From Gammaproteobacteria bacterium (GTDB taxonomy: Bacteria > Pseudomonadota > Gammaproteobacteria > Magnimaribacterales > TMED112), in NCBI GenBank assembly GCA_002692425.1, contig NZKB01000026.1:1-40016 (forward strand): a stretch of DNA of 40,016 bases, in the 5' to 3' direction. Numbering within the stretch: position 1 is the first letter of the stretch; every line of letters begins with the position of its first letter. Positions 351-20,764 of the stretch are shown here, in pieces. A program made the position numbers and the translations under genes. The notes under the pieces are model-generated. The model did no database searches and had not been told where the DNA came from. It saw nothing but the letters and a program-made list of their open reading frames with translations.

Positions 351-384
351 AATCTAATCTTTATTAAACGTATTTTTTTATTAT

Positions 385-2064: not shown

Positions 2065-2751
2065 ATGACAATGACAAATAAAGTATTTATCGTTGAAGAT
2101 GAGCCTGATCTTAGAGATACGCTGAAATATAATTTTGAAAATGAAGGTTTCCAAGTTGAATCTTTTGCAAACGGCGAATCATTCATAGATTTTATAGAAA
2201 AAAAGAAACCTAATTTAGTTGTCCTTGATTTAATGTTGCCAGGCCTTTCAGGTTTAGATGTGTGCAGAGAACTAAGATCAAAAGATAAATATGATGATAT
2301 TTCTGTAATTATGCTTACAGCTAAAAGTGAAGAAATTGATAGAATTGTAGGCTTTGAATTAGGTGCTGATGATTACGTAACAAAACCTTTCAGTGTTAGA
2401 GAACTTATTTTAAGGGTTAAAGTGCTCCTTAAGAAAAGAGCAGATAATCCTTCCGATGAACATATACTTGAATTTGGTCCAATTTCAATGAACCTCGAAG
2501 CGCATGATGTATCTATAAATGGAGAAAGTATTCTTTTAACTGCACTGGAATTTAAACTCTTAAAACATTTGCTTACAAGAAAGGGCAGAGTACAGACTAG
2601 AGACCAATTACTAGGGGATGTTTGGGGTTACAGTGCAGAAGTAACTACAAGAACTGTTGATACACATATTAAAAGGCTTAGAGAAAAACTTGGAAAAACT
2701 GGAGATTTTATACAAACAATAAGAGGTGTTGGTTATAAATTTAACAATTAA
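2065..2751 (+). CDS. phoB: OmpR/PhoB-family response regulator (PhoB-like)
   Basis: The receiver domain ([18 protein letters not shown]..D...G...GADDYVTKPFS.REL) is collinear with E. coli PhoB ([39 protein letters not shown]). A winged-helix C-terminus is present (TRTVDTHIKRLREKL...IQTIRGVGYKF). The gene symbol is tentative and rests on this similarity plus the phosphorus-gene context. Confidence 0.8.
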   Translation: MTMTNKVFIVEDEPDLRDTLKYNFENEGFQVESFANGESFIDFIEKKKPNLVVLDLMLPGLSGLDVCRELRSKDKYDDISVIMLTAKSEEIDRIVGFELGADDYVTKPFSVRELILRVKVLLKKRADNPSDEHILEFGPISMNLEAHDVSINGESILLTALEFKLLKHLLTRKGRVQTRDQLLGDVWGYSAEVTTRTVDTHIKRLREKLGKTGDFIQTIRGVGYKFNN

Positions 2752-2756
2752 CCTTG

Positions 2757-4526
2757 ATGTTTAATTTTTTTTCCTCAATTAAGATTTCTAGAATATTTCT
2801 ATTATCAATTTTATTTCTAACTTTCATTATTTTTATAGTAGTTACTATTTTTTCTACATTTATTTATAACAATTCAAAAGTACAGCTTGTTGAATCGCTC
2901 TATATCCAGGCACAATCAATCAATAAGTTGATGCCAGAGTATGATCAAAATATCAATTTTGATGAATACGCTGATTCTTTGACAATTCAAGATTCTGAAT
3001 TTAATGAGTTACGAGTAACAATTATTGATAAAAATTGGGATGTGATAGGCGACTCTTTAGTTGAAAGAGAAAATTTGTATTTATTAGAAAAACATTCCCC
3101 AGCAACAAGAAAAGAAATAAAGGATGCATTAAATAGTGTTTATGGTACGACAAGCAGAACAAGTGAATCTACTGGGTTAGACTTGATATATGTTGCGATT
3201 CAAAGGGATCCAAATAATTTAGAGAAAGGATTAGTGAGAGTAGCTTTACCATTCGATATATGGGGGTCATTCTTTAATTTTTTTATTTATCCATTCCTGG
3301 TCTTATTTATCCTTGTTATAGCCTCTTCGAGTTTTCTAAGTTTAAATATTGAATACAAATTAAGAAGAGATTTAGATTCACTACTAAAAAGCACTAGAAA
3401 AGCCATTAAGGGTCAAAATATATCAGAACTAAATAGTGGAGATGAGCAGTTAAGTACTTTGTCAGATGCAGTAAGGCAGATCGCACAAAGATTAAATTTA
3501 GAAGTAGAACAAGCTATTGAACAAAGAACAGAGTTCGGGACTGTTTTAGACAGCATGAATCAAGGTGTAATTATATTTAATAAAAACCAAAAGGTAAGAT
3601 TTTCGAATGATATAGCACTTGAAATGTTTGGTAAACATCAATTCTTTCTTAAAGAAAAAATTCAGGTAAAAAAACTCCAACCAATCAACAAACTCCTTAA
3701 AAAACTTAAGAAAATTTCTTCTGAAGAAATTGAGCTCTCAATTAAAGTTAAAAATGTAGATAAACATTTTTTAATATCAGGTTCACGAATGGAATCAACA
3801 AATGAATATATTATGGTCATCAGTGATATATCATCCTTAAGGAAACTTGAAGATTTACGAAAAAATTTAATATCTGATATATCACATGAAATTAAAACGC
3901 CTGTTGCTGTAATTAGAGCAGGCTCCGAAACCCTTTATTCAGGAAATATTAAAGATTCAAAAATTGTATCAAAATTCACTAAATCAATTCTGGATAATTC
4001 AGAAAGATTAAGTGAAATGATTGATGATCTCTTAGAACTAGAAAAAATTGAGTTTGGAGGTCTAGTTCTAAAAAAAGAAAAAATTATGCCTCATAAAGAA
4101 ATTAATAAGATTTTAAGTACTATAGAAGCTCTTCTTCTTGAAAATAAACTTGTTGTAGAAAATTTAATACCGGAAGGTTTGGTGATAAAAACAGACAAAG
4201 AATCTTTCAGAGCAATATTTTTTAATTTGTTGAATAATGCAATTAAATATTCACCAAAGGAATCTAAAATTAGTTTTAATGCTGTTATGAAAGGGGGAAG
4301 TTCAGTAATCTCAATTAAAGATAATGGCTATGGAATTGAAAAAAATAGTCTTCACAGAGTATTTGAACGATTTTACAGGTCTGCAAAAGCTAGAGCCCAT
4401 ACAAAAGGAACTGGACTGGGTTTAGCGCTAGTGAAACAACTATCAACTAGAATAGGTGCAAATGTGTCAGTAGAGTCAAAAATTAATATTGGCACTGAAT
4501 TTTTTGTTTCATTCCAACACAAGTAG
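2757..4526 (+). CDS. phoR: Sensor histidine kinase (2 TM, periplasmic domain, PAS, HisKA, HATPase_c; PhoR-like)
   Basis: H-box DISHEIKTPVAVI, N-box NLLNNAIKYSP, G1 box DNGYGIE and G2 box GTGLGLALV are present, with a PAS-like segment EFGTVLDSMNQGVIIFN. Two hydrophobic helices sit at about aa 13-37 and 171-196. I prefer the ATG at 2757 over the TTG at 2754. The gene symbol is tentative. Confidence 0.8.
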   Translation: MFNFFSSIKISRIFLLSILFLTFIIFIVVTIFSTFIYNNSKVQLVESLYIQAQSINKLMPEYDQNINFDEYADSLTIQDSEFNELRVTIIDKNWDVIGDSLVERENLYLLEKHSPATRKEIKDALNSVYGTTSRTSESTGLDLIYVAIQRDPNNLEKGLVRVALPFDIWGSFFNFFIYPFLVLFILVIASSSFLSLNIEYKLRRDLDSLLKSTRKAIKGQNISELNSGDEQLSTLSDAVRQIAQRLNLEVEQAIEQRTEFGTVLDSMNQGVIIFNKNQKVRFSNDIALEMFGKHQFFLKEKIQVKKLQPINKLLKKLKKISSEEIELSIKVKNVDKHFLISGSRMESTNEYIMVISDISSLRKLEDLRKNLISDISHEIKTPVAVIRAGSETLYSGNIKDSKIVSKFTKSILDNSERLSEMIDDLLELEKIEFGGLVLKKEKIMPHKEINKILSTIEALLLENKLVVENLIPEGLVIKTDKESFRAIFFNLLNNAIKYSPKESKISFNAVMKGGSSVISIKDNGYGIEKNSLHRVFERFYRSAKARAHTKGTGLGLALVKQLSTRIGANVSVESKINIGTEFFVSFQHK

Positions 4527-4539
4527 TAAAATCTCTTTT

Positions 4540-4977
4540 ATGAGTAAACCAGATTTAATAAGACTTTCTATGTTTTCATTGCTTTTATTATTTGTCTTAT
4601 TTTTTTATTACAATTTGGGTTTTTTGTCTTTCACAAAAGTTAACATCTCAGAGGAGTTACCTAAACCACTGAAAACTACAAGAGAATCAATACAAACGAC
4701 ACAAGATATAGGATCTATTGAGACAGCAAAAAAATTATCATTGGGTTTTGAGCTTGTTGGTATAAGAGGAAATAATCCAGAAAGTACAATTATTATCCTA
4801 GACAAAGACAAGTACAAACTTATTGAACAAGGTGAAAATATTACTAATCAAATAAGTTTTTCTCACGTCGAGGGTTCTAGGGCTTATTTTTTTGATGGTA
4901 AAGACTATAGTTTTCTTGATATCATAGGTTCTGAGAAATCTTTCAATCAAGACAGAATAGATCTGATAAAGGATTAG
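4540..4977 (+). CDS. gspC: Type II secretion system protein C, minimal form (TM helix plus HR domain only)
   Basis: Starts at ATG 4540 (MSKPDLIRLSMFSLLLLFVLFF...), which gives an N-terminal TM helix. The block LSLGFELVGIRGNNPESTIIILDKDKYKLIEQGENI..ISFSHVEGSRAYFF resembles the GspC HR (secretin-binding) domain. It lies directly upstream of gspD. The track ORF start at 4489 overlaps the kinase gene and was rejected. Confidence 0.6.
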   Translation: MSKPDLIRLSMFSLLLLFVLFFYYNLGFLSFTKVNISEELPKPLKTTRESIQTTQDIGSIETAKKLSLGFELVGIRGNNPESTIIILDKDKYKLIEQGENITNQISFSHVEGSRAYFFDGKDYSFLDIIGSEKSFNQDRIDLIKD

Positions 4978-4981
4978 GAAC

Positions 4982-6799
4982 ATGAAAAAATTAATTTTCA
5001 CAGCATTATTGTCTCTGTCGTTAGCAGCACAGGATCAAAATATTTTCTATAAAGATGCTGATATAAAAACTTTTGCACAAGATATTGCACTCTTGACAGA
5101 TAAAACAATTATTTTAGATCCAAGAGTAAAAGGTGTAATTTCAATCTATTCTGATGCACCACTTGATTCTGAATCAATATGGGAAGTATTTATTTCTACG
5201 ATGGAGGTCCAAGGATATAACGTACTTAAAGATGGCAATATATACAGAGTCATCCCTTCTCAAGAGGGCGTAAAGAACTTTTCTGAAGATGGACCATTAG
5301 CTGGTTCAATTGGATCAGAAGTAATTAAATTAAGATTTTCTAGTGCAAAAGATATTGTTAATGCTGTTAAGCCAATAGTTGGCGTGAGGTCATATATTGT
5401 TGCTTTACAGAATGATAGAGAAGTTCTTATAGCTGATGATGCAGATAACATAAAGAGAGTAAGGGATATTATAAGAAATCTAGATTCAGAATTAGATACA
5501 AGTATTTCCGATTTTAAATTAAAAAACTTATCTGCTATAGAAGCATTGCGATTAATTAATTCCCTTAAAGCAGACCCTAATACTCGATTTGATAAATTAG
5601 CTGTAGCTACTTTTCAAGGATCAAATAAACTAATCTTTAGTGGTCCACTTGAAATAGTCACTAGAGCAAAAAGATTAATATCTCAGTTAGATTTGGATAA
5701 TAGTTTAAATGAAAATACAAAAGTAATTTATCTTAACTATTCACAAGCTGAGGATATTTTAAAGATCCTGAAAGATGTTTCAGCCTCATTCAACCAAGAA
5801 CAAAATATTGATTATAAAACTGTTATTACATCACATGAGGAGACTAATTCAATTGTAATTAGATCCAATCCTCAAACTATTAAGACATTAACTTCAATTG
5901 TGGAACAGTTAGATATTAGAAGACCTCAAGTTTACGTGGAAGCTATAATTGTAGAAATATCAGATGAATCAGCTAAAGCATTAGGCGTAGACACAATCTA
6001 TTCAGGTGATGCTACAAACAATACCCCAATAGCATTATCACGATTTCCATCATCAAATAGTCCAGATCTTCTATCTCTAGCTATAAGTGCAGACGATGAT
6101 TCAAATTTAGGTGCTAATACTAGTGCAGCATCATCACTTTTAAGCACAAGAGGTCTTGTAGCCGGCGTTGGTAATATAATTGATGGTGAGGACAATTTTG
6201 CAATGCTGCTCTCCGTCCTAAAAGAAGATGCAAATTCAAATATATTATCAACACCTTCAGCTGTTGTTATGGATAATGAGGAAGCATCACTTCTAGTGGG
6301 TCAAGAGATACCAATAACAACAGGTGAATCATTAGGAACAAATAATTTAACACCTTTTAGAACTACAGCAAGGGAAGAAATTGGCATTAAATTAGAAGTA
6401 AAACCTCAAATTAATGAATCTGATTCAGTAGCGTTATTTATAAGACAAGAAGTTTCTAGTATTGCTGGATCTCAACTACCCAATACATCAGATTTAATTA
6501 CCAATAAGAGAGAAATTGAAACAACTGTTTTAGCCGACAATGGTGAAATACTGGTTTTAGGTGGGCTTATTAGTGAAGATATTCAAGAATCTGTAAATAA
6601 AGTTCCTATACTTGGCGATTTACCAATACTAGGAGCTTTATTTAGATCATCTGCCATGTCAGTACAAGAAAGAAACTTGATGATCTTTTTAAGACCTACA
6701 ATCTTAAGAGACTCAATAACAACGAAGGATCTATCTGAAGAAAAGTTTAATTTAATTCGAGCAAAACAGTTACTCCAAGAAGAAGATACAAGTAACTAA
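4982..6799 (+). CDS. gspD: Type II secretion system secretin GspD
   Basis: Signal peptide, N0-like start (FYKDADIKTFAQDIALLTDKTIILDPRVKGVISI), and the secretin C-domain with VPILGDLPILGALFRS and NLMIFLRPTIL. Confidence 0.95.
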   Translation: MKKLIFTALLSLSLAAQDQNIFYKDADIKTFAQDIALLTDKTIILDPRVKGVISIYSDAPLDSESIWEVFISTMEVQGYNVLKDGNIYRVIPSQEGVKNFSEDGPLAGSIGSEVIKLRFSSAKDIVNAVKPIVGVRSYIVALQNDREVLIADDADNIKRVRDIIRNLDSELDTSISDFKLKNLSAIEALRLINSLKADPNTRFDKLAVATFQGSNKLIFSGPLEIVTRAKRLISQLDLDNSLNENTKVIYLNYSQAEDILKILKDVSASFNQEQNIDYKTVITSHEETNSIVIRSNPQTIKTLTSIVEQLDIRRPQVYVEAIIVEISDESAKALGVDTIYSGDATNNTPIALSRFPSSNSPDLLSLAISADDDSNLGANTSAASSLLSTRGLVAGVGNIIDGEDNFAMLLSVLKEDANSNILSTPSAVVMDNEEASLLVGQEIPITTGESLGTNNLTPFRTTAREEIGIKLEVKPQINESDSVALFIRQEVSSIAGSQLPNTSDLITNKREIETTVLADNGEILVLGGLISEDIQESVNKVPILGDLPILGALFRSSAMSVQERNLMIFLRPTILRDSITTKDLSEEKFNLIRAKQLLQEEDTSN

Positions 6800-6801
6800 A
6801 T

Positions 6802-8244
6802 ATGAACTTACCTTTAACTTATAACTACTGTAAAACAAATAAAATTACCCTTATAAATAAGGCAAATAAATCAACAATTCATACTTGTGGCTCATTAAAA
6901 CCATCAGTTTTATCGTCTATACAAAATTTTCTTCTGGATGACGTAGAGAAGAAAAGTCATTCAGATGATGAATTTGAAAGTTTACTTACAGAACTCTATA
7001 CAGATCAATCTGATGATTATGATTTTTCAAATATTGAAGATCTTGACCTCATTGATATAGCTAATGCTATATCTCCATCAGATGATCTTCTGGATGACAA
7101 GAATAAGGGCCCAATAATTAAATTAATTAACGCCACAATAACAAAAGCCGTTAAAGCCAGAGCGTCTGATATTCATTTAGAACCATTTGAAAATAAATTA
7201 AGTATTAGATTTAGGGTAGATGGAGTTCTAAGAGAGGTGCTTCAATATCAAAAGAATATTACTCAAATGATAATTTCAAGAATAAAAATAATGTCGAAAT
7301 TAGATATTTCTGAAAGACGATTGCCTCAAGATGGAAGAATCTCAATATCTGTAGGTAAAAGAGATATAGATTTGAGGGTATCAACACTACCTTCGTCATT
7401 TGGTGAGAGAGTTGTATTGAGGATTCTAGAAAAAGATAAAACACACATTCAACTGGATCAATTGGGTTTTTCAGATGAAATATTAAAAAACTTTCGAAAA
7501 AACCTTGGAAAAAATGAAGGTATTATCCTTGTTACTGGACCAACAGGTTCAGGTAAAACAACATCACTTTATTCTGGTCTTAGAGAGATATCTGATAGAT
7601 CTCAAAATATTCTAACAATCGAAGATCCAGTTGAGTACGCTCTTGAAGGAATTGGGCAAACCCAAGTAAATACTAAGACAGGACTTACTTTTGCTAAGGG
7701 TCTAAGAGCTATTCTAAGACAGGATCCAGATATTGTGATGGTTGGTGAAATTAGAGATAAAGAAACAGCAGAAATAGCTATTCAAGCTAGTTTAACAGGT
7801 CATTTAGTGCTATCAACAGTACACACTAATAGTGCTGTTAATGCTATTACTCGTTTAAGAGATATGGGTATTGAACCTTATTTACTATCATCAAGTCTTG
7901 TATATGTTTTATCTCAAAGACTCGTTAGACAATTATGCCCACATTGTAAAACTATTGACGACGACAATAAAAATTTACTCGATAAATATAAAATAAAGGG
8001 CAAAGCATACAAATCTGTTGGGTGCAATAAATGTGATAATACTGGTTATAAAGGTAGATTAAGTATTGGCGAATATATATCGATAGATGAAAAAATAAGT
8101 GAATTTATACATAACTCAGCTTCTGAAAATGAAATTTCTGATTATGTTTACGCAAATAATAAAAAAATATATGAGAATGGCCTTCAAGTTGTAGCAAATG
8201 GTGATACATCGCTATCAGAATTAATGCGTGTTATTGAAGATTAA
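6802..8244 (+). CDS. gspE: Type II secretion ATPase GspE
   Basis: Walker A GPTGSGKTT, Asp boxes, His box TGHLVLSTVHTN, and a tetracysteine motif CPHC...CNKC. Confidence 0.95.
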   Translation: MNLPLTYNYCKTNKITLINKANKSTIHTCGSLKPSVLSSIQNFLLDDVEKKSHSDDEFESLLTELYTDQSDDYDFSNIEDLDLIDIANAISPSDDLLDDKNKGPIIKLINATITKAVKARASDIHLEPFENKLSIRFRVDGVLREVLQYQKNITQMIISRIKIMSKLDISERRLPQDGRISISVGKRDIDLRVSTLPSSFGERVVLRILEKDKTHIQLDQLGFSDEILKNFRKNLGKNEGIILVTGPTGSGKTTSLYSGLREISDRSQNILTIEDPVEYALEGIGQTQVNTKTGLTFAKGLRAILRQDPDIVMVGEIRDKETAEIAIQASLTGHLVLSTVHTNSAVNAITRLRDMGIEPYLLSSSLVYVLSQRLVRQLCPHCKTIDDDNKNLLDKYKIKGKAYKSVGCNKCDNTGYKGRLSIGEYISIDEKISEFIHNSASENEISDYVYANNKKIYENGLQVVANGDTSLSELMRVIED

Positions 8245-9440
8245 TGGCTACTTTTAAATACAATGCATTTGATGCAAATGAAAGAAACTCAAAAGGTTTT
8301 GTAAATGCTTCTGATGTAGATGAAGCTAAATTGATATTAAAGAATAGGGGCCTTAATCCTCTAACAATTGAAAAAAGCCGCCAAAAAAGAGCATCAATCA
8401 GAATTTCAAATAATAATCTTTCAATATTTACTAAACAAATGTCAGCACTATTAGGTGCAGGTACTCCTATAGAGAAATGCTTATCACTACTTAGCAAACA
8501 GTCTTCTAATATAAAATTTTCACAAATTTTACTTAGTATCAATGAAGACATAACTGAAGGTAATAGTCTCAGCTCAGCTATGAAAAAATATCCATCAATA
8601 TTTGATGAAATATATACATCCACAATATATGCTGGAGAAACCTCCGCATCTCTTTCAGAGGTATTTCATGACTTATCAGTTTATTTAGACAAAGAGGCTA
8701 AAATCAGATCACAAGTTATAGGAGCTTTAATCTACCCCGCAGTTTTATTTGTTGTATCTATTGCTGTAATTTATTCACTTCTAAGTTTTGTTTTACCGCA
8801 AGTTGTCGAACAGTTTGTTAGTTCAAATGTAGAATTACCCTTATTAACTCAAACTTTACTCGCTTTTTCTGAAATCTTTCCAATCATAATAGGTTCTTTG
8901 TTAGCAATACTTATTTCTATATATGTAGTACAAGTAACTAATATCATCCCATTGAAGTATCAATTACTCATATCTAAATATTTTCTGTTTACTCCATTGA
9001 TAGGACCAATCATTTTATATGATCAAACTGCTCGATTTTGTTCATCTATGAGATTAATGACAAAAGCTGGATTAAATACCATTGATAGTCTCCAGATAGC
9101 ACAAAATACCTTTAAAAATAAATATTTAAGAGCCCAGGTTGCAAAAGTAGTAAACAAAGTCATTGCTGGCACTTCAATTAGTAAAGCATTCTCTCAAGCT
9201 CATATTTTCCCCGATGTTTTCCAACAACTCTTAAGTTCTGGTGATATGGGCAGTCAAGTCAGCGAAATGTTTGAAAAGACAAAGGAATTTTTAGATCAGG
9301 AGGTAGACACTCGCAGAAATCTACTTCTAACTTTATTGCAACCAATAGTTATTCTTACAATGGGTGTTTTTGTTATGTTAATTGTTTTATCAATAATGTT
9401 GCCTTTATTGCAAATGAATAATTTAATATTCAGTATATGA
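8244..9440 (+). CDS. gspF: Type II secretion inner-membrane platform protein GspF
   Basis: 398 aa with two GspF-type cytoplasmic repeats and three hydrophobic helices. TAATG junction with gspE and ATGA junction with gspG. Confidence 0.9.
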   Translation: MATFKYNAFDANERNSKGFVNASDVDEAKLILKNRGLNPLTIEKSRQKRASIRISNNNLSIFTKQMSALLGAGTPIEKCLSLLSKQSSNIKFSQILLSINEDITEGNSLSSAMKKYPSIFDEIYTSTIYAGETSASLSEVFHDLSVYLDKEAKIRSQVIGALIYPAVLFVVSIAVIYSLLSFVLPQVVEQFVSSNVELPLLTQTLLAFSEIFPIIIGSLLAILISIYVVQVTNIIPLKYQLLISKYFLFTPLIGPIILYDQTARFCSSMRLMTKAGLNTIDSLQIAQNTFKNKYLRAQVAKVVNKVIAGTSISKAFSQAHIFPDVFQQLLSSGDMGSQVSEMFEKTKEFLDQEVDTRRNLLLTLLQPIVILTMGVFVMLIVLSIMLPLLQMNNLIFSI

Positions 9441-9865
9441 AAAAGTTAATAAAAAAAGGCTTTACACTTTTAGAGCTATTAATTGTTATTGTGATATTAG
9501 GACTTCTTGTCTCCTTAGTATCTGTAAATTTTTTACCAACTTTAAGTAATGCGTATACTGAGGTAGCTAGACAAGATATTTCAAGACTACAACAAGCACT
9601 TGTTATGTTTAAGATTAATGAAGGTTCATACCCAACATCAAATCAAGGTCTTGAAAGCTTAAAAACAAATCCTGGCAATCTTAAAAATCCTTCTAAATAT
9701 CCAAATGGTGGATATATAAATAAATTACCAGTTGATCCTTGGGGAAATACTTACGTTTATATTTATCCAGGTCAATATGGTGAATATGATATTGTTTCAT
9801 TAGGTGCTGACGGCCAGCCTGGTGGAGAAGGGGAAAATGCAGACATTGGTAACTGGACTAACTAA
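9437..9865 (+). CDS. gspG: Major pseudopilin GspG
   Basis: Prepilin leader and cleavage motif KKGFTLLELLIVIVILGLL, conserved DPWGNTYVY and GADGQPGGEGENADI. Confidence 0.95.
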   Translation: MKKLIKKGFTLLELLIVIVILGLLVSLVSVNFLPTLSNAYTEVARQDISRLQQALVMFKINEGSYPTSNQGLESLKTNPGNLKNPSKYPNGGYINKLPVDPWGNTYVYIYPGQYGEYDIVSLGADGQPGGEGENADIGNWTN

Positions 9866-10232
9866 AGGTTTTACCATACTTGAAATATTGATCGTTTTAG
9901 CGATTATTGCAATTTCTGGCACTTCTTTTTATTTAATTCTAAATCAACCAAAGAGTTTTGATGCTTATGAGCAAACTTTTAATGAATTTAAAACTTTAAG
10001 TATTTACAGTGGAAATTCTTATGGTTTTACAAAAGACTCAATTAAAATTTTAAATAACAATGTTTGGGAAGAACTAGAAGTTGCAGACTTTTCTGGCATT
10101 TACTCAGTTACCGATAATTTTAATAAAACTACAAATATAGAAGAAGACGATATCTTCTTAGTTATAGCACCGGGTAATGAGATAAATGTTAAATCTATAA
10201 CATTGTTAGGAGGTAAAATCATTGAACTCTAA
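9837..10232 (+). CDS. gspH: Minor pseudopilin GspH
   Basis: Prepilin motif LTKGFTILEILIVLAIIA and operon position. I chose the internal ATG at 9837 rather than the track start at 9804. Confidence 0.7.
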   Translation: MQTLVTGLTKGFTILEILIVLAIIAISGTSFYLILNQPKSFDAYEQTFNEFKTLSIYSGNSYGFTKDSIKILNNNVWEELEVADFSGIYSVTDNFNKTTNIEEDDIFLVIAPGNEINVKSITLLGGKIIEL

Positions 10233-13071: not shown

Positions 13072-13480
13072 ATTTTCAGCAAGAGAACTTTTGTTAATTA
13101 AGATATTAACTGTAATAGCTTTTGTAATAGCGTTTTTTTATGGGACGTCTTACGTTGCAAATGAAATAACTAAATCAAAAAATTTAATATTCTTTGAAGT
13201 TAATAAGTTCAATGAAAAGAAACAATTACTTGCTCAAATTAAAGCTTTAGAAAATAGTAAAAATTTGGAATTATCAGCGGACGATTTTCTTTTAGATCTT
13301 ACAGCAAATAATATTTCTTATGAACAGAAAGATGATGAGATTCTTATTTCTGGATTATCAAATGTAGATGCTCTAGAAATAATGACAAACATTGAAGAAA
13401 GTAACGTTGCAATAGACAGTTTTAAATTTAGTGCTGGAGAATCCACAAATATAATTCTAACTATTAAATTTAATGGGTAA
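13061..13480 (+). CDS. gspM: Type II secretion assembly protein GspM (by position and topology)
   Basis: 139 aa with an N-terminal TM helix (LLLIKILTVIAFVIAFFYG) and a periplasmic domain of about 100 aa. Overlaps gspL by 11 nt. Confidence 0.6.
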   Translation: MNYKFSARELLLIKILTVIAFVIAFFYGTSYVANEITKSKNLIFFEVNKFNEKKQLLAQIKALENSKNLELSADDFLLDLTANNISYEQKDDEILISGLSNVDALEIMTNIEESNVAIDSFKFSAGESTNIILTIKFNG

Positions 13481-14135
13481 ATTCTTTCTAACCTTACTCT
13501 TAATGTTCATGCTGTTATTTGGCTCTCTATTTTTTATTCCCATAAATTTTTTTGTATCCAGTATTATGAAAAATTTAGATGTTGATATTGAGTATTCATA
13601 TCTAGAAGGAAATATTTTTTCTGGAAAAATTTTAGATTTATATTATGACAATAATTTTATTGGAGATTTTAACTATAAGAATCAATTTACATTCAACGAT
13701 ATTTCTGCAAATTTTTATTCTATTGATGAAAAAAATATTGCAGGTACAGTTGTAAAAGATTTACATAATATCACTGACATAGGAACTATAGTGCTTAAGG
13801 ATTTTTCAGCATCAAGTGTAGTTTCAACTGATTTAATTAAGTATGTAGATTTAGATCTTAATGTCCAAGAACTAGAAATCAAAAATTTTGAGTGTGCGTA
13901 TATTAATGGAAATTTAAAAATTTCATCCCAGGAAATAAATGAAGAACTAATTGGCGAATTGGCATGTTTTGAAGGTAACACAATCTCAGCAGAACTATTT
14001 AATAAAAGAATGAAAGAATTAGGGAATATAACTTATTCAGATTCTCAAATACAAGTAAGAATATCTACAAAAACAATACCGGACAGAAGAGTCCAATTAT
14101 TAATGGACTATGTTTCTTTTACAATTGATCTTTAA
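13473..14135 (+). CDS. gspN: Type II secretion protein GspN (by position and topology)
   Basis: 220 aa with an N-terminal TM helix (FFLTLLLMFMLLFGSLFFIPI). It is the last gene of the operon and overlaps gspM by 8 nt. Confidence 0.5.
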   Translation: MGKFFLTLLLMFMLLFGSLFFIPINFFVSSIMKNLDVDIEYSYLEGNIFSGKILDLYYDNNFIGDFNYKNQFTFNDISANFYSIDEKNIAGTVVKDLHNITDIGTIVLKDFSASSVVSTDLIKYVDLDLNVQELEIKNFECAYINGNLKISSQEINEELIGELACFEGNTISAELFNKRMKELGNITYSDSQIQVRISTKTIPDRRVQLLMDYVSFTIDL

Positions 14136-14943
14136 TAACCTTTTTGACCAATCCATCAGATATACTCCAGAACGTATTTTCAATAACTTGAGAGTTAAGC
14201 TCCTCAATTATTAGACTATATAAATTTAAAGCTACGGGGATAATATCAATTCGATCTTTTGGTATATCATGCTTTTCTATTAAAACAGTATTATCTATAG
14301 ACTTATAATTGGTTACGTAATGATTAAAGTCAGAGGTCTTTATAGGACCTTTAATTTCATTTGCTTGCATTAAAGCACGTAAATTTCCACCCAAACCATA
14401 TACATGATCTATAGATCTAAATTGACGAAGCCATATGCTTAATTCTTGCAATGCTTCGGACTTTTGGGTTTCACTAAAGTTTAATAATCTTACAGCCCCT
14501 AATTGAAAAGATTTAGCGTGAATATCATTATTGGTATTAATACAAATTTCCAAACTGCCGCCACCAATATCTACAACAGCAGAATTTATTTTTGATTTAT
14601 TAAATTCCGCAAGTAAAAATGCTTCAACATCACCTGAAATAATCTTTACATGAATATCATGTTGTTTCAGCAACTCTATTATCTCTTTCGCATTTTGGGT
14701 ATCTCTCAATGCAGAGGTTGCAATATAGTTAACAATTAAAATATTTTTGCTTTTAAAGTTTTTTTTATACTCAAGCAGTAAATTTAATAAATCTTGAATA
14801 GTTTTATCTTCTAAGAAACCCTTAGAAAATACATCTCGCCCAAGCCTTAAAGGATGTCTGTAATATTCAACAAGTTCCAGACCTCCATTAAAGATTTTAT
14901 ATTTAATTGCATTTGATCCAATATCAACAATGGCGTATTTCAT
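14119..14943 (-). CDS. ppx: Ppx/GppA-family exopolyphosphatase (short, ASKHA N-terminal domains only)
   Basis: The N-terminus MKYAIVDIGSNAIKYKIF, then ATSALRDTQN, ISGDVEAFL and VVDIGGGSLEI, match the Ppx-GppA phosphatase fold motifs. It lies 3 nt downstream of ppk2. Confidence 0.85.
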   Translation of the reverse strand: MKYAIVDIGSNAIKYKIFNGGLELVEYYRHPLRLGRDVFSKGFLEDKTIQDLLNLLLEYKKNFKSKNILIVNYIATSALRDTQNAKEIIELLKQHDIHVKIISGDVEAFLLAEFNKSKINSAVVDIGGGSLEICINTNNDIHAKSFQLGAVRLLNFSETQKSEALQELSIWLRQFRSIDHVYGLGGNLRALMQANEIKGPIKTSDFNHYVTNYKSIDNTVLIEKHDIPKDRIDIIPVALNLYSLIIEELNSQVIENTFWSISDGLVKKVIKDQL

Positions 14944-14946
14944 AAC

Positions 14947-15780
14947 TCAATCTGAGAAGGGCGCAAGAATTTTATATTGTTCATAATTTAAATTATCAAA
15001 TAATACACCTTCGATATAACATGAATATTGGCCAAGATCTTCACCCCATTTTGGTGGTTCAAGAGTTTCCTTTCCTTCGTAATCTAGGGTATTTAGGATG
15101 TATCTAAGAGCACTTAGCCTAGCAATCATTTTGTTATTCGCATTAATAATAATCCAAGGAGAGTTTGATCTAGCAGTTAAGTCAAACATTTGATTTTTAT
15201 AAAGAGTGAAAACATCCCATTTATTAACCATCAATTTATCTGAAGCAGATAATTTCCAGTATTTTAATCTACTATTTTTTCTTGCTGATAAACGTCTTTG
15301 CTGTTGATCTTTGTCGATTGAAAAATAGAATTTAACAACTTCATTACCATTTGAAATTAATTTATCTTCCCACTTATTCACATTAGTCATGAAGTCTTCA
15401 TAGTGTTTTTTTGTGCAATAGCCCAAAGTTGGTTCTGTCAAAGCTCTGGTATACCAAGAGCGATCAAAAAGAGCAATTTTTCCTTCCTCTGGCAAGTGCT
15501 TTTCCCATCTTTTAAACCAATCATCTTTTTCCTCTTTAGTTGGTATTCCTAAATGAATATATCTAAAATTTGATGGGCGCAGATGCTCAGAAAAAAAATT
15601 GATAGTTGAAGATTTACCTGCTGTATCTCGCCCTTCAAAACACAAAGCTATTCTTCTTTTATTTTTAATAACATCTTCTTGAAGCTTAAGAAGTTCGACT
15701 TGTAATTTATATTTTTCTTTTTTATAAATTATCGGACCTAAAGTCTTATATTGTTCAAATTTATATTCGATGACACTCAT
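14947..15780 (-). CDS. ppk2: Polyphosphate kinase 2 (single-domain PPK2)
   Basis: PPK2 Walker-A-like block FEGRDTAGKSSTI, then FDRSWYTR and the lid region RLSARKNSRLKYWKLS. 277 aa. Confidence 0.9.
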   Translation of the reverse strand: MSVIEYKFEQYKTLGPIIYKKEKYKLQVELLKLQEDVIKNKRRIALCFEGRDTAGKSSTINFFSEHLRPSNFRYIHLGIPTKEEKDDWFKRWEKHLPEEGKIALFDRSWYTRALTEPTLGYCTKKHYEDFMTNVNKWEDKLISNGNEVVKFYFSIDKDQQQRRLSARKNSRLKYWKLSASDKLMVNKWDVFTLYKNQMFDLTARSNSPWIIINANNKMIARLSALRYILNTLDYEGKETLEPPKWGEDLGQYSCYIEGVLFDNLNYEQYKILAPFSD

Positions 15781-15832
15781 GTATATTTTTAGAAAAGAGG
15801 ATATAGTATAAACAAATATTAACTTTCATGTT

Positions 15833-17092
15833 ATGACTCTAGTTGAATTATCGCTCTTCGGAATCCCTTTAATACTTATTTCTTCCGCTATGTTAGGTTT
15901 TTTTACAGCCTATGGTGTGGGAGCAAATGATGTTGCTAATGCCATGGGGACATCTGTGGGTAGCAAAGTCTTAACGATCAAACAAGCAATCTTAGTAGCA
16001 GCTATTTTTGAATTTTTAGGAGCATTTCTAGCAGGCGGTGGCGTAACGCAAACAATCAGAAAAGGAGTAATAGATCCTGCACTATTCGAGGGGAATCTAG
16101 AAATTTTGATATATGGAATGATTTCAGCCTTATTTGCTGCTGGCACTTGGTTGTTAGTTGCCAGTCTTAGAGGTTGGCCTGTTTCAACTACGCATACTAT
16201 TGTTGGAGCAATTGTTGGTTTTGGTATATATACACTAGGCATTAATGAGATTAACTGGGCTGTAGTTGGAAATATTGGCCTTTCATGGATTACCTCACCC
16301 TTATCCTCAGCCCTAGTAGCTGGCTTATTTTATTACATTTGTAAAACTTACATCATAGATAATGAATCAAGATTTAAAGGCTTGATCATAAGAATTTATA
16401 TATTCCTTGCAGGGTTTGCTATAGCACTTATTACTGTTACTAAAGGATTAAAAAATATATTCAAACAACAAGAATTGTTTGTTAGTTTTCAACAAAGCGT
16501 TTTAATTTCTGCCTTAGCTGCAGTTGTATTTACTTTTATTTTCTACTATTTTTCTAAGGCTAAATTAAAAAAATCTGTAAATTCTGAATCACAGTTTGCC
16601 TACCTTATGATCTTTACTTCATGTGCAGTAGCCTTTGCACATGGATCTAATGATGTTGCTAATGCTATAGGACCATTAGCTGCAATCAATCAAGCAACTA
16701 GCCAACTTTTAAATCAACCATACTCCCTTGAAACTCCTCTATGGATACTCTTCCTCGGAGCTGCTGGGATTGTTTTAGGTTTGGCTACACTAGGTTATAG
16801 AGTTATGAAAACTATTGGTGAAAAGATTGTTAAACTCACACCAAGTAAAGGCTTTTCTGCTCAACTTGCTGCCGCCTTAACAGTAGTGATTGCAAGTCAA
16901 TTAGATATGCCTGTATCAACGACTCATACCTTAGTAGGCGCAGTTATTGGAATTGGGCTTGTTGAAGGAGCAAGTACAATAAATTTTAATTCGGTGAGAA
17001 CTATTGTTTTATCTTGGGTGGTAACATTACCTGCTGGCGCTCTTTTATCAATAGCATTTTTAGAGATATTTACTAATCTTTTCACTTATTAA
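15833..17092 (+). CDS. pitA: Inorganic phosphate transporter, PiT family
   Basis: Duplicated PiT signature GANDVANAMGTSVGS / GSNDVANAIGPLAA and about 10 hydrophobic helices. Confidence 0.9.
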   Translation: MTLVELSLFGIPLILISSAMLGFFTAYGVGANDVANAMGTSVGSKVLTIKQAILVAAIFEFLGAFLAGGGVTQTIRKGVIDPALFEGNLEILIYGMISALFAAGTWLLVASLRGWPVSTTHTIVGAIVGFGIYTLGINEINWAVVGNIGLSWITSPLSSALVAGLFYYICKTYIIDNESRFKGLIIRIYIFLAGFAIALITVTKGLKNIFKQQELFVSFQQSVLISALAAVVFTFIFYYFSKAKLKKSVNSESQFAYLMIFTSCAVAFAHGSNDVANAIGPLAAINQATSQLLNQPYSLETPLWILFLGAAGIVLGLATLGYRVMKTIGEKIVKLTPSKGFSAQLAAALTVVIASQLDMPVSTTHTLVGAVIGIGLVEGASTINFNSVRTIVLSWVVTLPAGALLSIAFLEIFTNLFTY

Positions 17093-17108
17093 TTAAATTG
17101 CTACTAAT

Positions 17109-17126
17109 CTGTCACAATTTTGCAAC
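17109..17126 (+). promoter_or_regulatory. Weak candidate Pho box upstream of the TonB receptor-phytase pair
   Basis: CTGTCAC-AATT-TTGCAAC. The first heptamer matches 6 of 7 positions of the enterobacterial CTGTCAT half-site and the 4-nt AT spacer is correct, but the second heptamer matches only 3 of 7. It lies 41 nt upstream of the ATG at 17167. Confidence 0.2.
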
Positions 17127-17166
17127 ACATTAAGATTATTGTAGATTTCTAAATAGGTAAGTTTAA

Positions 17167-19713
17167 ATGAAAAAAATAAATCTCTCTTTATTAATTAGTT
17201 TACTTTCTTTTACTTTTTATGCTCAAGAATCAACAACCGAAGATGTAGTTGATTCAATTGAAGAAGTTGTAACTGTAGGGACTAGAGCTAGCTTAAAATC
17301 AGGTCTCGATAAACAAAAAGAATCCAACCAAGTAGTTTCAATTGTTGATTCCGATGCAATAGGTGATTTTCCAGATGAAACTGCAGCTGAAGCTGTTAGA
17401 AGACTTTCAGGTGTTTCAGTTGAAAATGATCAAGGAGAAGGCCGTTACGTTACTCTTAGAGGTATGGCCGGTGGTTTAAATGCTGTTGCAATGAATGGTG
17501 CATTAGTACCAGCTCCTGAAGGAGGCAGAAAAGTTCTACTTGATGGTTTACCAACAGAACTCCTAGATTCAATTGAAGTGTATAAAACGCTTACACCTAA
17601 CCAAGATTTAGAGGGTATCGGTGGTAGAATTGAATTTAATACAAAAAAAGCTACAGACCTAGATGAACAAGTTCTAAAATTTAGATACGATACGCAATAT
17701 AACGAATTCTCTAAAAGAACTAATAACCCAAAATACTCACTTACGTATGGTGACAAATTCACCGAGAGTTTTGGTGCAATATTTGGATATACATTTCAAA
17801 GTAAACATATCATTTCTAATAACAATGAAGTTGGTTATGAACCTTGGAATATTGATGATAATGGTAATAAATATCTAGCTCGTGATTGGGAAATGAGATT
17901 CTATGATCTAACTAGAGAAAGAGAGGGCATGACTCTTGATATAGATTTTGAATATTCGCCTAATACATCTTTTTTTGTGAATTATCTTTTTAATGAATAT
18001 GTTGACGATGAAGTTAGACACAAAGATGAATACAGAGCAAGGAATGTTGTTGAATCATCCATCACACCGACATCAGCTGCATATCAAAGAATAACCGCTG
18101 ACAAAGAAACAAGAAAACGTATAGAAACAAGACAAATTGAAACACAAATTATTGGTGGAGAAACTAGTTTTGGAGACCTAAATTTTAAGTTTCAAGCAAG
18201 TAATTCTTTTGCTGAAGAAGCTGATGACAACAATGTAGATGGTAAATTCAGGAGTGAATGTCGAATTAGAGAAGGAGACGAAATTTGTGGTACATACAAC
18301 TGGTCTGACCCAAAATTTATAAATGTTGTATTAGCTCCAGCAGCAGCAGATTTACTTGATCCAAGCTCATATTGTTGGGATGAATTTGAAATTGATTATG
18401 GTGTCATACAGGATGAAGAAAAAGCTATTAAATTTGACTTTGAGAATGAAAACTTTGAATTGTTTGATACACCAATGGTTTTGCAATTTGGTTATAAATT
18501 TAGCAGTAGAAATAAGTCTAATACTGAAGGGAATCTAGATGGAAGTGATGCTATGTCACCATTTGGGATGATTTCTTATAACCCATACACTCCAGATAAG
18601 TGGTATTTTCCACAAACACTTGGCTTTTTTGCAGACCCAGATTTCCTATTTGGTGCACAATCGCAATTCAGACCATTAGACGTAGAATTAGCAGATTTTT
18701 GGGAAACTGAAGAAGAAATTAATGCATTTTATCTAATGTCTACCTTCGATTATGGTAATGCAGTGGTTGTTGCAGGTGTCAGACATGAAGATACTTCATT
18801 TAAAACATTTGGATATAACGATGGTGATATTAATGATGTCCTAAGTTTTTATCGAGACTATGGATTTACCGCTCCAAGCATAAATGTGAAATATTTTTTG
18901 GATGATAATACACAATTAAGAGCAGCATTCTATCGATCTTTATCAAGACCAGGTTTTGGAGAAACAGCACCTATAGCAGATATTAGTGAAAACGAAGGTA
19001 GTGGTCAGTTTAGAGGCTCTATGGGTAACCCAGATTTAGAACCATACGAATCAAATAACCTAGATTTTTCATATGAATACTACAATGATGGTTTAGTTTT
19101 AACCGCTGGAGTTTTCTACAAAGATATTGAAAATACCATTTACCCAAGGGTTATTGCAGATCAGACCATTGGTGGAATATTTTTTACAGAGCTTGAAACC
19201 TATGCTAATGCAGGATCTTCTTCAATATTAGGAATTGAATTAAATCTGTTCGCTGAATTAGATAATTACTTACCTATTGATGGCTTTTTTGCAGCTTTCA
19301 ATACAACTTTAAGTGATGGAGAAAGCGATTTTGACACTGGTTTAGGTACATTTACAATCCCATTTAGAAAACTTTCTGAAGAAAATGCCAACCTTTCATT
19401 AGGGTACGACAAAGGAAAAATAGACGCTAGATTAGCTGTGAACTATCGCTCAAGCTATCTTGATTACCTTGGCGATGAAGGTGAAGACTTGCTTGATAGT
19501 GATTTTAATTATGGTTTTATTAGATTTACAGATGACTATCTTTCTTACGATTTAACCGCTAAATATAAATATTCAGATAATCTGTCATTCAAATTTGAAG
19601 GTAAAAATTTAGGCAATAGACCTGAATATTACTATTGGAATACTTCAGATAGGCTGTCACAATATGATGAGTATGGATACACATTGTCTTTTGGCATCAG
19701 ATATAGCTACTAA
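17167..19713 (+). CDS. TonB-dependent outer-membrane receptor
   Basis: Signal peptide, TonB-box-like EEVVTVG, plug domain (RRLSGVSVENDQGEGRYVTLRG, IEVYKTLTP), a long barrel, and a terminal aromatic residue (FGIRYSY). Confidence 0.9.
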   Translation: MKKINLSLLISLLSFTFYAQESTTEDVVDSIEEVVTVGTRASLKSGLDKQKESNQVVSIVDSDAIGDFPDETAAEAVRRLSGVSVENDQGEGRYVTLRGMAGGLNAVAMNGALVPAPEGGRKVLLDGLPTELLDSIEVYKTLTPNQDLEGIGGRIEFNTKKATDLDEQVLKFRYDTQYNEFSKRTNNPKYSLTYGDKFTESFGAIFGYTFQSKHIISNNNEVGYEPWNIDDNGNKYLARDWEMRFYDLTREREGMTLDIDFEYSPNTSFFVNYLFNEYVDDEVRHKDEYRARNVVESSITPTSAAYQRITADKETRKRIETRQIETQIIGGETSFGDLNFKFQASNSFAEEADDNNVDGKFRSECRIREGDEICGTYNWSDPKFINVVLAPAAADLLDPSSYCWDEFEIDYGVIQDEEKAIKFDFENENFELFDTPMVLQFGYKFSSRNKSNTEGNLDGSDAMSPFGMISYNPYTPDKWYFPQTLGFFADPDFLFGAQSQFRPLDVELADFWETEEEINAFYLMSTFDYGNAVVVAGVRHEDTSFKTFGYNDGDINDVLSFYRDYGFTAPSINVKYFLDDNTQLRAAFYRSLSRPGFGETAPIADISENEGSGQFRGSMGNPDLEPYESNNLDFSYEYYNDGLVLTAGVFYKDIENTIYPRVIADQTIGGIFFTELETYANAGSSSILGIELNLFAELDNYLPIDGFFAAFNTTLSDGESDFDTGLGTFTIPFRKLSEENANLSLGYDKGKIDARLAVNYRSSYLDYLGDEGEDLLDSDFNYGFIRFTDDYLSYDLTAKYKYSDNLSFKFEGKNLGNRPEYYYWNTSDRLSQYDEYGYTLSFGIRYSY

Positions 19714-20764
19714 ATCTAGATCATATTTATTAAGAGCAAGTTTTTTACTTGCTCTTTTTTTTCATTCTTTATTATTGTTTGCGGAGAAAATAGATTACGT
19801 ATATGAAACTGAAGCAGTCTCTTCAATGGGGGATGCAGCTGATGATCCAGCAATCTGGTTTAATCACGTAGATCCTACTCAATCCTTAATCTTTGGAACA
19901 GATAAGCGAAAAGGTATTCATGTCTACGACTTATATGGCAAAGAATTAAGTTTCTCTGAACTAGGTGCCACAAATAATATTGATCTTAGAGTTATTGATG
20001 AGAATGTTCATATGGTCATTTCGAATAGATCTTCGAGCACACTTGGCTATTGGGTATTCCCTGAATCCAACTTGTTTAAGTATTTTTCAGATCATCCGAC
20101 AGATGCCTTTACAGAAGATATTACTCATTATCACCTAAAAGCAAATATGAATGTTTATGGCGTATGCATGGGATTTGTAAATGGTCTACCGTTTGCGGCA
20201 TTGACCGAAGAAGAGGGCCCAACGATTCAGGTGTGGAACCTTATTTCTAAAGAAGTAGTTGGAGAAATTAATATTATCGTTGATGAAGAAGATGCACCTA
20301 AATCAGGTAACGAAGCTGAAGGCTGTGTATTTGATGATGAAAATAGCCGTTTATTGATCTCCAGAGAGGGCTCTAAAGGTTATTTGAAAGCTTATGAGTC
20401 AGATTCATTACAAATGATAGAAGTTGTTGATTCAAGAGATGGGAATATTATTGGTGATCCAGAAGGTGTAGCAATATATAAAACTTCTGATACAGAAGGA
20501 TACATCATACTCTCCTCACAAGGTGGTAATGAATTTAACCTGTACGACCGAAAAAGTTTAGATTTTGTTAGTAAATTTAAAATCAATTCCGTTGAAGATA
20601 CTGATGGTTTAGATGTCACTAATGAAGCCGTTGAGGGTATATTTCCAAAAGGGTTTTTAGTGGTACAAGACGGTAGAAACTTGCCTAATAATCAAAATTT
20701 TAAATTAGTGAGTATGGAAGAAGTACTCAAAAAAAAACTGAGCGCTCCTGGCTTGATCAATTAA
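19664..20764 (+). CDS. Beta-propeller phytase (3-phytase, BPP family), secreted
   Basis: BPP hallmark GDAADDPAIWFN..IFGTDKRKGIHVYDLYGK plus later DPEGVAIY and TDGLDV blocks. The N-terminus has a signal-peptide-like KSRSYLLRASFLLALFFHSLLLFA|EK. The start is ambiguous (ATG 19664, 19667 or 19673, or TTG 19691); every option overlaps the receptor gene's 3' end. Confidence 0.85.
   Translation: MMSMDTHCLLASDIATKSRSYLLRASFLLALFFHSLLLFAEKIDYVYETEAVSSMGDAADDPAIWFNHVDPTQSLIFGTDKRKGIHVYDLYGKELSFSELGATNNIDLRVIDENVHMVISNRSSSTLGYWVFPESNLFKYFSDHPTDAFTEDITHYHLKANMNVYGVCMGFVNGLPFAALTEEEGPTIQVWNLISKEVVGEINIIVDEEDAPKSGNEAEGCVFDDENSRLLISREGSKGYLKAYESDSLQMIEVVDSRDGNIIGDPEGVAIYKTSDTEGYIILSSQGGNEFNLYDRKSLDFVSKFKINSVEDTDGLDVTNEAVEGIFPKGFLVVQDGRNLPNNQNFKLVSMEEVLKKKLSAPGLIN
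19732..19762 (+). terminator. Intrinsic-terminator-like hairpin after the TonB receptor stop, inside the phytase signal-peptide codons
   Basis: A perfect 10-bp stem, AAGAGCAAGT (19732-19741) paired with ACTTGCTCTT (19747-19756), with a TTTTT loop. A T run follows (8 consecutive T at 19755-19762). It starts 19 nt after the receptor stop codon (19711-19713). Confidence 0.6.

Follow-up and report, generated by a model that had tools for sequence, protein, structure and literature searches.

A two-component pair, a type II secretion cluster and phosphorus-acquisition genes lie side by side in a conserved SAR86 locus

Introduction

In Pseudomonas aeruginosa, the Hxc type II secretion system (T2SS) and its cargo, LapA/LapB, are under ON/OFF control, being switched on when inorganic phosphate (Pi) is limiting (PMC9769906). 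In Caulobacter crescentus, a 12-gene T2SS is located beside the gene for ElpS, a lipoprotein that is induced by phosphate starvation and released by the T2SS (PMC2996285). Because Hxc (PMC9769906) and ElpS (PMC2996285) precede it, the idea of a low-phosphate T2SS is not new. Here, this idea is considered for a locus in a 40,016-nt stretch of DNA (the window; contig NZKB01000026.1, positions 1 to 40,016), in which the genes for a response regulator (RR) and a histidine kinase (HK) adjoin a T2SS (gsp) cluster that is itself followed by phosphorus-related genes. Matches to the kinase gene were found in SAR86 single-cell and metagenome-assembled genomes (82-88% protein identity) and, judged by these matches, the window is derived from a SAR86-cluster gammaproteobacterium. 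SAR86 bacteria are among the most abundant heterotrophs of the surface ocean, and their regulation is little known.

Like Hxc, the SAR86 T2SS can be linked to phosphorus scavenging, in that it lies near the gene for a secretable phosphatase-type enzyme, a phytase. Pi control in Pseudomonas is experimental, whereas the SAR86 case is known from sequence and has no Pho-box-like site before the gsp genes. The SAR86 regulator pair adjoins the T2SS, whereas the Pseudomonas phoBR genes lie elsewhere in the genome, away from Hxc. Moreover, the candidate cargo in SAR86 is a beta-propeller phytase (BPP) paired with an importer, and not an alkaline phosphatase. Caulobacter shares with SAR86 an oligotrophic aquatic habitat and a 12-gene T2SS, and a large lipoprotein is also encoded in the SAR86 window (35026-37290). 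Unlike the ElpS gene, however, the gene for this lipoprotein is ~21 kb from the gsp cluster, and, within the comparisons made, the protein shows no relationship to ElpS.

When compared with the phosphate two-component systems PhoB/PhoR of E. coli, SenX3/RegX3 of Mycobacterium and PnpRS/Bacillus-type PhoPR, the SAR86 pair has a similar architecture, i.e., an RR with a receiver and a winged helix and an HK with two transmembrane (TM) segments followed by PAS, HisKA and HATPase_c domains; the window also contains a candidate operator of 11-bp-phased direct repeats located 10 nt before a -10-like hexamer, a layout that would resemble theirs. The ~128-aa periplasmic domain of the kinase is like that of Firmicute and Bacteroidota PhoR and unlike E. 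coli PhoR. The SAR86 pair differs from the phosphate systems in its sub-cut-off scores, in having no pstSCAB-phoU genes nearby and in having no box before its own genes. Pairs of a TonB-dependent receptor and a BPP are widespread in aquatic Proteobacteria, and the SAR86 pair resembles these in that the two genes are adjacent, co-oriented and overlapping and in that the phytase has a signal peptide; new in SAR86 are a conserved Pho-box-like promoter and the placement beside the genes for PiT, PPK2 and PPX. Every component of the locus is of a known kind. No paper joining SAR86, the T2SS and phosphate was found in the literature, and what is new relative to the literature searched is the arrangement in SAR86, the candidate Pho operator that precedes the receptor and phytase genes and the predicted promoter of leaderless type at gspC.

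Results and Discussion

Overall organization of the locus

The layout described in an initial annotation of this DNA, consisting of an RR-HK pair, a T2SS cluster and phosphorus genes, was found to be correct, as were its map of open reading frames (ORFs) and all of the junctions that it quoted. We favor a reading in which the locus consists of three neighboring units that lie side by side and form no single demonstrable regulon, and we give this reading about an even chance of being right. The first unit would be made up of an acyl-CoA ligase, an OmpR/PhoB-family RR and a kinase of the PhoR/PnpS-like type, whose sensor domain is periplasmic; the pair would most likely represent the phosphate-responsive two-component system of this lineage, in a clade that is reportedly without PstSCAB. 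The second unit would be the 12-gene T2SS, transcribed from its own promoter with some read-through from upstream. The third unit would contain ppx and ppk2 on the opposite strand, the PiT gene and the TonB-receptor/beta-propeller-phytase operon, which is the best candidate in the window for a direct target of the regulator. At low Pi, the receptor would import phytate, which would be hydrolyzed by the Sec-exported phytase in the periplasm, or outside the cell if the enzyme is secreted; PiT would then take up the released Pi, and PPK2 and PPX would buffer Pi as polyphosphate. The identities of the genes, their junctions, the synteny and the conserved motifs are direct observations, while the phosphate signal, binding by the regulator, promoter activity and the cargo are inferred. 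The annotation of the locus is correct and a phosphorus neighborhood is plausible, but the data do not prove that the secretion machine is under Pho control: the proposal that the T2SS itself belongs to the low-phosphate response found no Pho box before the gsp genes to support it, and these genes have a promoter-like element of their own.

The window has a G+C content of ~30% and is ~94% coding; Rfam and tRNA scans of the window were empty. The features of the first unit and of its junction with gspC are as follows.

325..353, plus strand: promoter-like element TTCACA-17-CATAAT (with TG), 10/12 matches, kept in relatives
385..2043, plus strand: AMP-binding acyl-CoA-ligase-like gene (Pfam AMP-binding 1.5e-69)
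2065..2751, plus strand: OmpR/PhoB-family response regulator (Response_reg 3e-30, Trans_reg_C 4e-26)
2757..4526, plus strand: sensor histidine kinase, PhoR/PnpS/WalK-like (PAS_7 weak, 0.0015; HisKA 1.8e-14; HATPase_c 7.6e-22)
4504..4532, plus strand: candidate sigma70 promoter (TTGTTT-17-TAAAAT); its end is 7 nt 5' of the gspC ATG

The two-component pair had initially been placed at the head of the operon. This was not borne out, as the acyl-CoA-ligase-like gene, which matches the NCBIfam long-chain-fatty-acid-CoA ligase model with 373 bits (below the cut-off), is where the co-directional string really begins and has its stop 21 nt 5' of the RR gene. Since the string starts at 385, the pair does not physically head it. 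The promoter-like element before the ligase gene overlaps the first codons of a divergent minus-strand DUF179 gene, and the spacer between the ligase and RR genes is variable and contains no conserved box.

The kinase-gspC junction and conservation of gene order

As initially annotated, the kinase gene ends at 4526 and the gspC-like ATG is at 4540, leaving a 13-nt gap that contains neither a hairpin nor a T-run; because a terminator is absent, read-through from the kinase gene into the gsp genes is possible. An independent promoter between these two genes, which the initial annotation had named as evidence that would count against its proposal, is predicted here in the form of a conserved TTGnnn-17-TAAAAT element. 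The hexamer TAAAAT or TAGAAT is present 6-7 nt 5' of the gspC ATG in 24 of the 27 loci compared, which comprise 23 distinct sequences, and the remaining three loci carry the one-mismatch variants TAATAT or TAAGAT at the same spot. The position of this hexamer relative to gspC holds even where the kinase stop codon has moved, and TTGnnn is found 17 nt upstream of the hexamer in most loci (e.g., TTGTCA-17-TAAAAT in L057). By comparison, the background of TAnAAT in the window is 0.0026 per position, and only two other genes in the window, ftsK (hexamer 24866-24871, ATG 24880) and a 2OG-oxygenase gene (hexamer 32135-32140, ATG 32146), both of them first in their operons, have TAnAAT 5-8 nt before the ATG. 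The simplest reading of these sequences is a conserved sigma70 promoter without a Pho box, which would give rise to a leaderless or near-leaderless gspC transcript. As gspC appears to have its own conserved sigma70-like promoter without a Pho box, gsp expression is probably largely independent of the regulator. With this -10 element located before gspC and before two other genes that are first in their operons, there is a hint that SAR86 may often make leaderless transcripts; if so, this would bear on the prediction of gene starts and operons in this group.

Metatranscriptome contigs from 12 seawater runs, which are too fragmented to settle co-transcription, cover RR, gspC-D, E, G/H, pit, the receptor and the phytase. 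One of these RNA contigs (1931-2175) bridges the acyl-CoA ligase and RR genes, and several bridge gspC and gspD. Contig depth was 4-13 for gspC/gspD, as compared to 0-2.6 for HK. A single 151-nt RNA contig, derived from a divergent relative, extends from the last ~36 kinase codons into the first ~9 gspC codons. Some read-through into gspC is therefore likely, with DNA carry-over as a possible source of this contig.

Five SAR86 genomes share the order of the acyl-CoA ligase, RR, HK, gspC-gspN and the convergent ppx, and the same order from acyl-CoA ligase to ppx was found on a contig with a 56%-identity kinase as well as in 21 further metagenome loci, which span 55-88% kinase identity. Adjacency of RR, HK and gspC, whose conservation in related genomes the initial annotation had proposed to check, was seen in 22/22 deeper loci, down to 55% kinase identity, while GspL, M and N drift to ~27-30% identity in these loci. 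In eight closer loci, collinearity continues from ppx, ppk2, pit, the receptor and the phytase through ftsK. As a control, the upstream flank, whose genes (mscS, ggt, a GlcNAc-family gene and DUF179) are functionally unrelated, was found to be equally collinear in the same loci; therefore, the conserved synteny is not specific to a regulatory link. Tight packing is also seen between unrelated genes in the window, such as ftsK and lolA (1-nt overlap) or lolA and serS (8-nt overlap), and the acyl-CoA ligase and RR genes are separated by 21 nt. Since unrelated genes are equally packed and the upstream flank is equally collinear, the 13-nt gap and the adjacency represent weak regulatory evidence.

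These data bear directly on an alternative in which RR-HK-gspC through gspN form one phosphate-controlled transcription unit that exports the phytase and/or a Lamin-tail-domain (LTD) lipoprotein, which we regard as rather unlikely. The co-orientation of the genes across a short gap with no terminator, the invariant adjacency in the 22 deeper loci, the RNA contig that spans the junction and the adjoining phosphorus genes are all consistent with a single unit, and there is precedent in Hxc/LapA (PMC9769906) and in the ElpS lipoprotein (PMC2996285). However, a single unit of this kind would be expected neither from the promoter-like element of gspC nor from the lack of any Pho-box-like site before the acyl-CoA ligase, RR and gspC genes. 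In addition, equal synteny of an unrelated flank, equal packing of unrelated genes and the lower RNA depth of HK relative to gspC/gspD argue against it, as does the pairing of the phytase with a TonB importer described below, which fits a periplasmic role. If Pho control of the secretion machine were nevertheless true, it would be a further example of the principle shown in Pseudomonas.

Phosphorus genes and a candidate Pho operator

The features of the third unit are listed here in order.

14119..14943, minus strand: short exopolyphosphatase with a Ppx/GppA domain (Pfam 1e-21; TIGR03706 133 bits, below the cut-off)
14947..15780, minus strand: single-domain polyphosphate kinase 2 (PPK2 1.7e-63; TIGR03707 273 bits, cut-off 302)
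15833..17092, plus strand: PiT-family inorganic phosphate transporter (PHO4 4.6e-114; 94-99% conserved)
17098..17126, plus strand: Pho-box-like operator TTGCTAC-taat-CTGTCAC-aatt-TTGCAAC, three direct repeats with 11-bp phasing
17137..17142, plus strand: -10-like hexamer TATTGT, separated from the last repeat by 10 nt; TAnnnT invariant across lineages
17167..19713, plus strand: TonB-dependent receptor, candidate phytate importer (plug and barrel; TIGR01782 466.8 bits, above the cut-off of 310)
19664..20764, plus strand: beta-propeller phytase with a Sec-type signal peptide judged by eye (Pfam Phytase 2.2e-40)

The identities and the synteny of the phosphorus genes that were initially described as following directly on the T2SS are real, but ppx and ppk2 are encoded on the opposite strand. 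The ppx gene is convergent with gspN, with a tail-to-tail overlap of 17 nt, and ppx and ppk2 are for this reason located outside the gsp transcript. The PiT gene is divergent from ppk2, and the 52-nt spacer between them is conserved but has no TGTCA-type repeats. A 1047-nt RNA contig (run X1; 15368-16414) spans the divergent ppk2 and pit starts along with this spacer; this could reflect overlapping antisense transcription, transcription of a long 5' UTR or DNA carry-over.

The receptor belongs to the TonB-Xanth-Caul subfamily, and the phytase matches the solved Bacillus 3-phytases 3AMR and 1POO at 4e-32. The two genes are adjacent and co-oriented and overlap by 41-50 nt, an overlap that is conserved in loci L027-L032; the phytase gene is located 5.5 kb downstream of the gsp cluster. 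This pairing suggests, from the gene arrangement, that phytate would be hydrolyzed in the periplasm after TonB-dependent import, a route that would not need the T2SS. Because import and hydrolysis could work without the T2SS, the phytase as T2SS cargo is speculation. The cluster of receptor, phytase, PiT and PPK2/PPX genes suggests that SAR86 can draw on phytate for its phosphorus.

Pho boxes had been suggested as worth seeking upstream of 385, 2065 and 17167, and repeats of this type were found only before 17167 (at 17098-17126), with none before 385 or 2065. The Pho-box-like operator is located in the 74-nt spacer between pit and the receptor gene, consists of YTGYMAC repeats and is unique in the window. 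Two other sub-lineages keep the repeats (e.g., TTGCTAC-gaag-CTGTAAC-attt-GCGTCAC) as well as TAnnnT, while the remaining spacer diverges; among the three sub-lineages, 19/29 positions are invariant in the box as compared to 14/40 in the rest of the spacer (p=0.016). Across 539 kb of SAR86 loci, sites with at least 18/21 matches were recurrent only at the pit-receptor spacer. The triple repeat followed by a -10-like hexamer has the architecture of a classical PhoB-activated promoter and represents a candidate operator. No Pho-box-like site was found before the acyl-CoA ligase, RR, gspC, pit or ppk2 genes in any lineage compared; for the acyl-CoA ligase, RR and gspC, this covers 27 loci. A scan with the E. 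coli Pho box (CTGTCAT-N4-CTGTCAT, at least 11/14 matches) returned only chance-level hits, all of them intragenic. If the two-component pair is a phosphate sensor, 17098-17126 would be a first concrete operator from which to define a Pho regulon across SAR86 genomes.

Some other candidate elements were evaluated in and around these genes. A further CTGTCAC, located at 19654 just 5' of the phytase gene, was not accepted as a Pho site, as it is doubly coding, near-invariant sequence with no second half-site. A hairpin at 19732-19756, with a perfect 10-bp stem and a T-run, is found 3' of the receptor stop, inside the codons for the phytase signal peptide, and its loop varies in L027 and L029. It was rejected as a conserved terminator or attenuator for the receptor gene, since L030-L032 lose two stem pairs without compensation. 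Separately, weaker phased repeats occur at 9314-9342 at the 3' end of gspF, ~95 nt before gspG (17/21 matches as three repeats, 13/14 as two repeats); these are coding sequence, are present in close lineages only and are within chance expectation.

Assignment of the two-component pair

The initial annotation had called the pair Pho-type, and scoring against curated models supports this in rank and not in score: PhoB and PnpS/PhoR rank first, while every curated cut-off is missed. The RR carries both a receiver and an OmpR-type winged-helix DNA-binding domain, as do members of the PhoB family. Its top NCBIfam model is PhoB (TIGR02154; 249.5 bits, cut-off 296.2), followed by CreB (221 bits), MtrA (211 bits) and YycF (210 bits); the Bacteroidota PhoB model NF053854 gave 215.5 (cut-off 270) and the E. 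coli-type model PRK10161 gave 178.8 (cut-off 471). Among solved structures in the PDB, the best relative of the RR is RegX3 of M. tuberculosis (201.8 bits), a phosphate-starvation regulator.

The kinase gene starts at the ATG at 2757, in agreement with homologues of 589 aa, and not at the TTG at 2754. The protein has TM segments at 4-39 and 168-200, which flank the ~128-aa periplasmic domain and are followed by a weak PAS, a HisKA and a HATPase_c domain; this membrane anchor and cytoplasmic domain order is that of PhoR. Its top models are PnpS (267, cut-off 400), WalK (220) and phoR_proteo (214, cut-off 334), and it scores 198 against Bacteroidota PhoR (cut-off 500) and 139 against PRK11006 (cut-off 390). 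In public annotation, this kinase is labeled only 'ATP-binding protein'. An exhaustive search of 1.84 billion cluster representatives showed the kinase family to be isolated, with one representative at 56% identity (P0241, on contig L035) and the next at 34%; those at ~34% identity are PnpS/PhoR/WalK-type kinases. When the contig index was searched for an identical copy of the kinase, with either start codon, there was no match.

No pst or phoU genes were found in the 40-kb window or in the flanking loci. SAR86 has been reported to possess only two binding-protein ABC importers, for oligopeptides and for ferric iron, and to take up phosphate via secondary transporters (Dupont et al., PMC3358033). 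As SAR86 genomes reportedly lack a phosphate ABC importer, a better PhoBR pair linked to Pst genes elsewhere in the genome, which the initial annotation had named as a possibility, is unlikely. Taken on its own, the assignment of the pair to the phosphate type is probable.

The alternative that the pair is a CreBC-, MtrAB- or WalRK-like regulator, concerned with carbon or lipid use or with the envelope, and that its position only reflects inherited gene order, is likewise rather unlikely. Such a regulator could explain why the Pho models score below cut-off with CreB, MtrA and YycF close behind PhoB, and why WalK (220) falls between PnpS (267) and PhoR (214). The periplasmic domain of the kinase, unlike E. 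coli PhoR, and the packing of the pair against the acyl-CoA ligase gene, with which it may be co-transcribed, would also agree with this alternative, as would the clade-wide synteny. On the other hand, PhoB is the top model for the RR and RegX3 is its top solved relative, and a phased repeat of the TGTCAC type typical for PhoB is found before the phytase operon, ~12.5 kb past the end of the kinase gene. Moreover, no rival candidate for the role of phosphate regulator was seen, and Pst is reportedly absent from SAR86.

Weighing of the proposed three-unit arrangement

Several observations weigh against the arrangement in three units with a phosphate-type pair. None of the PhoB and PhoR scores reaches its curated cut-off, and the scores of CreB, MtrA and WalK-type models are close to them. 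The absence of Pst rests on a paper that covers other SAR86 genomes (PMC3358033). The -35-like TTG of the predicted gspC promoter falls on codons for a conserved Phe-Val and, in many lineages, the stop codon and the -10 hexamer share nucleotides; the conservation of this element may thus be due in part to coding constraint. The RNA contig across the HK-gspC junction implies co-transcription at some level. Finally, the site at 17098-17126, from which the Pho-box consensus was itself derived, deviates from the E. coli 18-mer at five positions and was compared in three sub-lineages only.

A more far-reaching interpretation starts from the apparent lack of PstSCAB/PhoU sensing in SAR86. In this interpretation, which appears decidedly doubtful, the PhoR-like kinase senses phosphorus directly through its ~128-aa periplasmic domain and read-through ties the T2SS to the signal that controls the receptor-phytase operon; if true, the ~20-kb block would be a single consolidated module for phosphorus scavenging throughout the clade, with export handled by the T2SS. 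It is very improbable that the pair is a dedicated T2SS regulator for an envelope or substrate cue other than phosphate. In favor of such a regulator are the invariant, co-oriented position immediately upstream of the T2SS and the isolated kinase family, with all 28 contexts from this block; against it, collinearity of the whole region already keeps the kinase in this place, and no repeat-type operator is found near gspC, whose candidate promoter looks constitutive. Of these 28 kinase contexts (including the window), 27 have gspC next, and contig L040 ends at the kinase.

Composition of the secretion cluster

The T2SS cluster of the second unit consists of 12 genes located at 4540-14135.

4540..4977, plus strand: GspC-like, 145 aa (position before gspD in all loci; alignment)
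4982..6799, plus strand: gspD secretin (Secretin, Secretin_N and GspD N0 domains)
6802..8244, plus strand: gspE ATPase (T2SSE 8e-149)
8244..9440, plus strand: gspF inner-membrane platform (T2SSF 1.8e-55)
9437..9865, plus strand: gspG major pseudopilin (T2SSG 6.7e-38 and N_methyl)
9837..10232, plus strand: gspH-like minor pseudopilin (N_methyl motif; 131-aa gene call in relatives)
10222..10554, plus strand: gspI-like minor pseudopilin (N_methyl)
10554..11132, plus strand: gspJ (T2SSJ and N_methyl)
11129..12061, plus strand: gspK (T2SSK_1st 7e-15)
12058..13071, plus strand: GspL-like, 337 aa, single TM at 194-218 (position and topology only)
13061..13480, plus strand: GspM-like, 139 aa, N-terminal TM (position and topology only)
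13473..14135, plus strand: GspN-like, 220 aa, N-terminal TM (position and topology only)

The junctions between these genes are as initially given, with TAATG at 8244, ATGA at 9437, 11129 and 12058, a 1-nt overlap at 10554 and the end of the cluster at 14135; the start of gspH is most likely at 9837. The description of the T2SS as complete held for D, E, F, G and H-K, while C, L, M and N are assigned by position only and GspO/PilD was not found in the window. All four core components, GspD, E, F and G, have strong Pfam matches, and the minor pseudopilins are represented by T2SSJ and T2SSK matches and by N-methylation motifs in the H and I candidates. By comparison, GspC, L, M and N had no match in Pfam (E<=10), NCBIfam or profile-vs-PDB searches, and AlphaFold (AF2) pLDDT values of 45 for the GspC-like and 33 for the GspL-like protein indicate low confidence. 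In the GspC-like protein, a TM helix at the N-terminus is combined with a conserved C-terminal domain that is all-beta, and a PDZ domain is absent. The names GspC, L, M and N are therefore putative, based on gene order, size and single-TM topology, which are conserved in all loci. No peptidase A24 match, as expected for the prepilin peptidase GspO/PilD, was found among window ORFs of at least 90 aa; this enzyme may be encoded elsewhere.

The lipoprotein and other neighboring genes

35026..37290, plus strand: lipoprotein, 754 aa, with Pro/Thr linkers and two Lamin-tail domains (domain search)

The protein encoded at 35026-37290 had been called a nuclease, but no nuclease domain was detected in it, and it carries two Lamin-tail domains. 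Its central region has no PDB or Pfam match. By analogy with the Caulobacter precedent (PMC2996285), this LTD lipoprotein could be T2SS cargo, although this is speculation. The Pro/Thr and Gly linkers of the protein are long, and a cupredoxin-like motif was recognized by eye at its C-terminus. G+C content is 42% at 35001-37000 as compared to ~30% elsewhere, and the gene is followed after 21 nt by one for a 298-aa signal-peptide protein without a family match.

In L027-L032, a 41-aa ORF is called between the acyltransferase and short-chain dehydrogenase genes (~17146-17276 in these loci, corresponding to ~22985-23110 in the window), and the start of the short-chain dehydrogenase is later (263 aa) than that of the longest ORF in the window (276 aa). 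Further downstream, 28847-32071 encodes a 1074-aa outer-membrane beta-barrel with a CarboxypepD_reg domain (an Oar/SusC-like TonB-type receptor). This gene is followed by those for a 2OG-Fe(II) oxygenase and a nucleoside transporter, with a convergent thymidine kinase gene, and its surroundings may represent a nucleoside-scavenging neighborhood.

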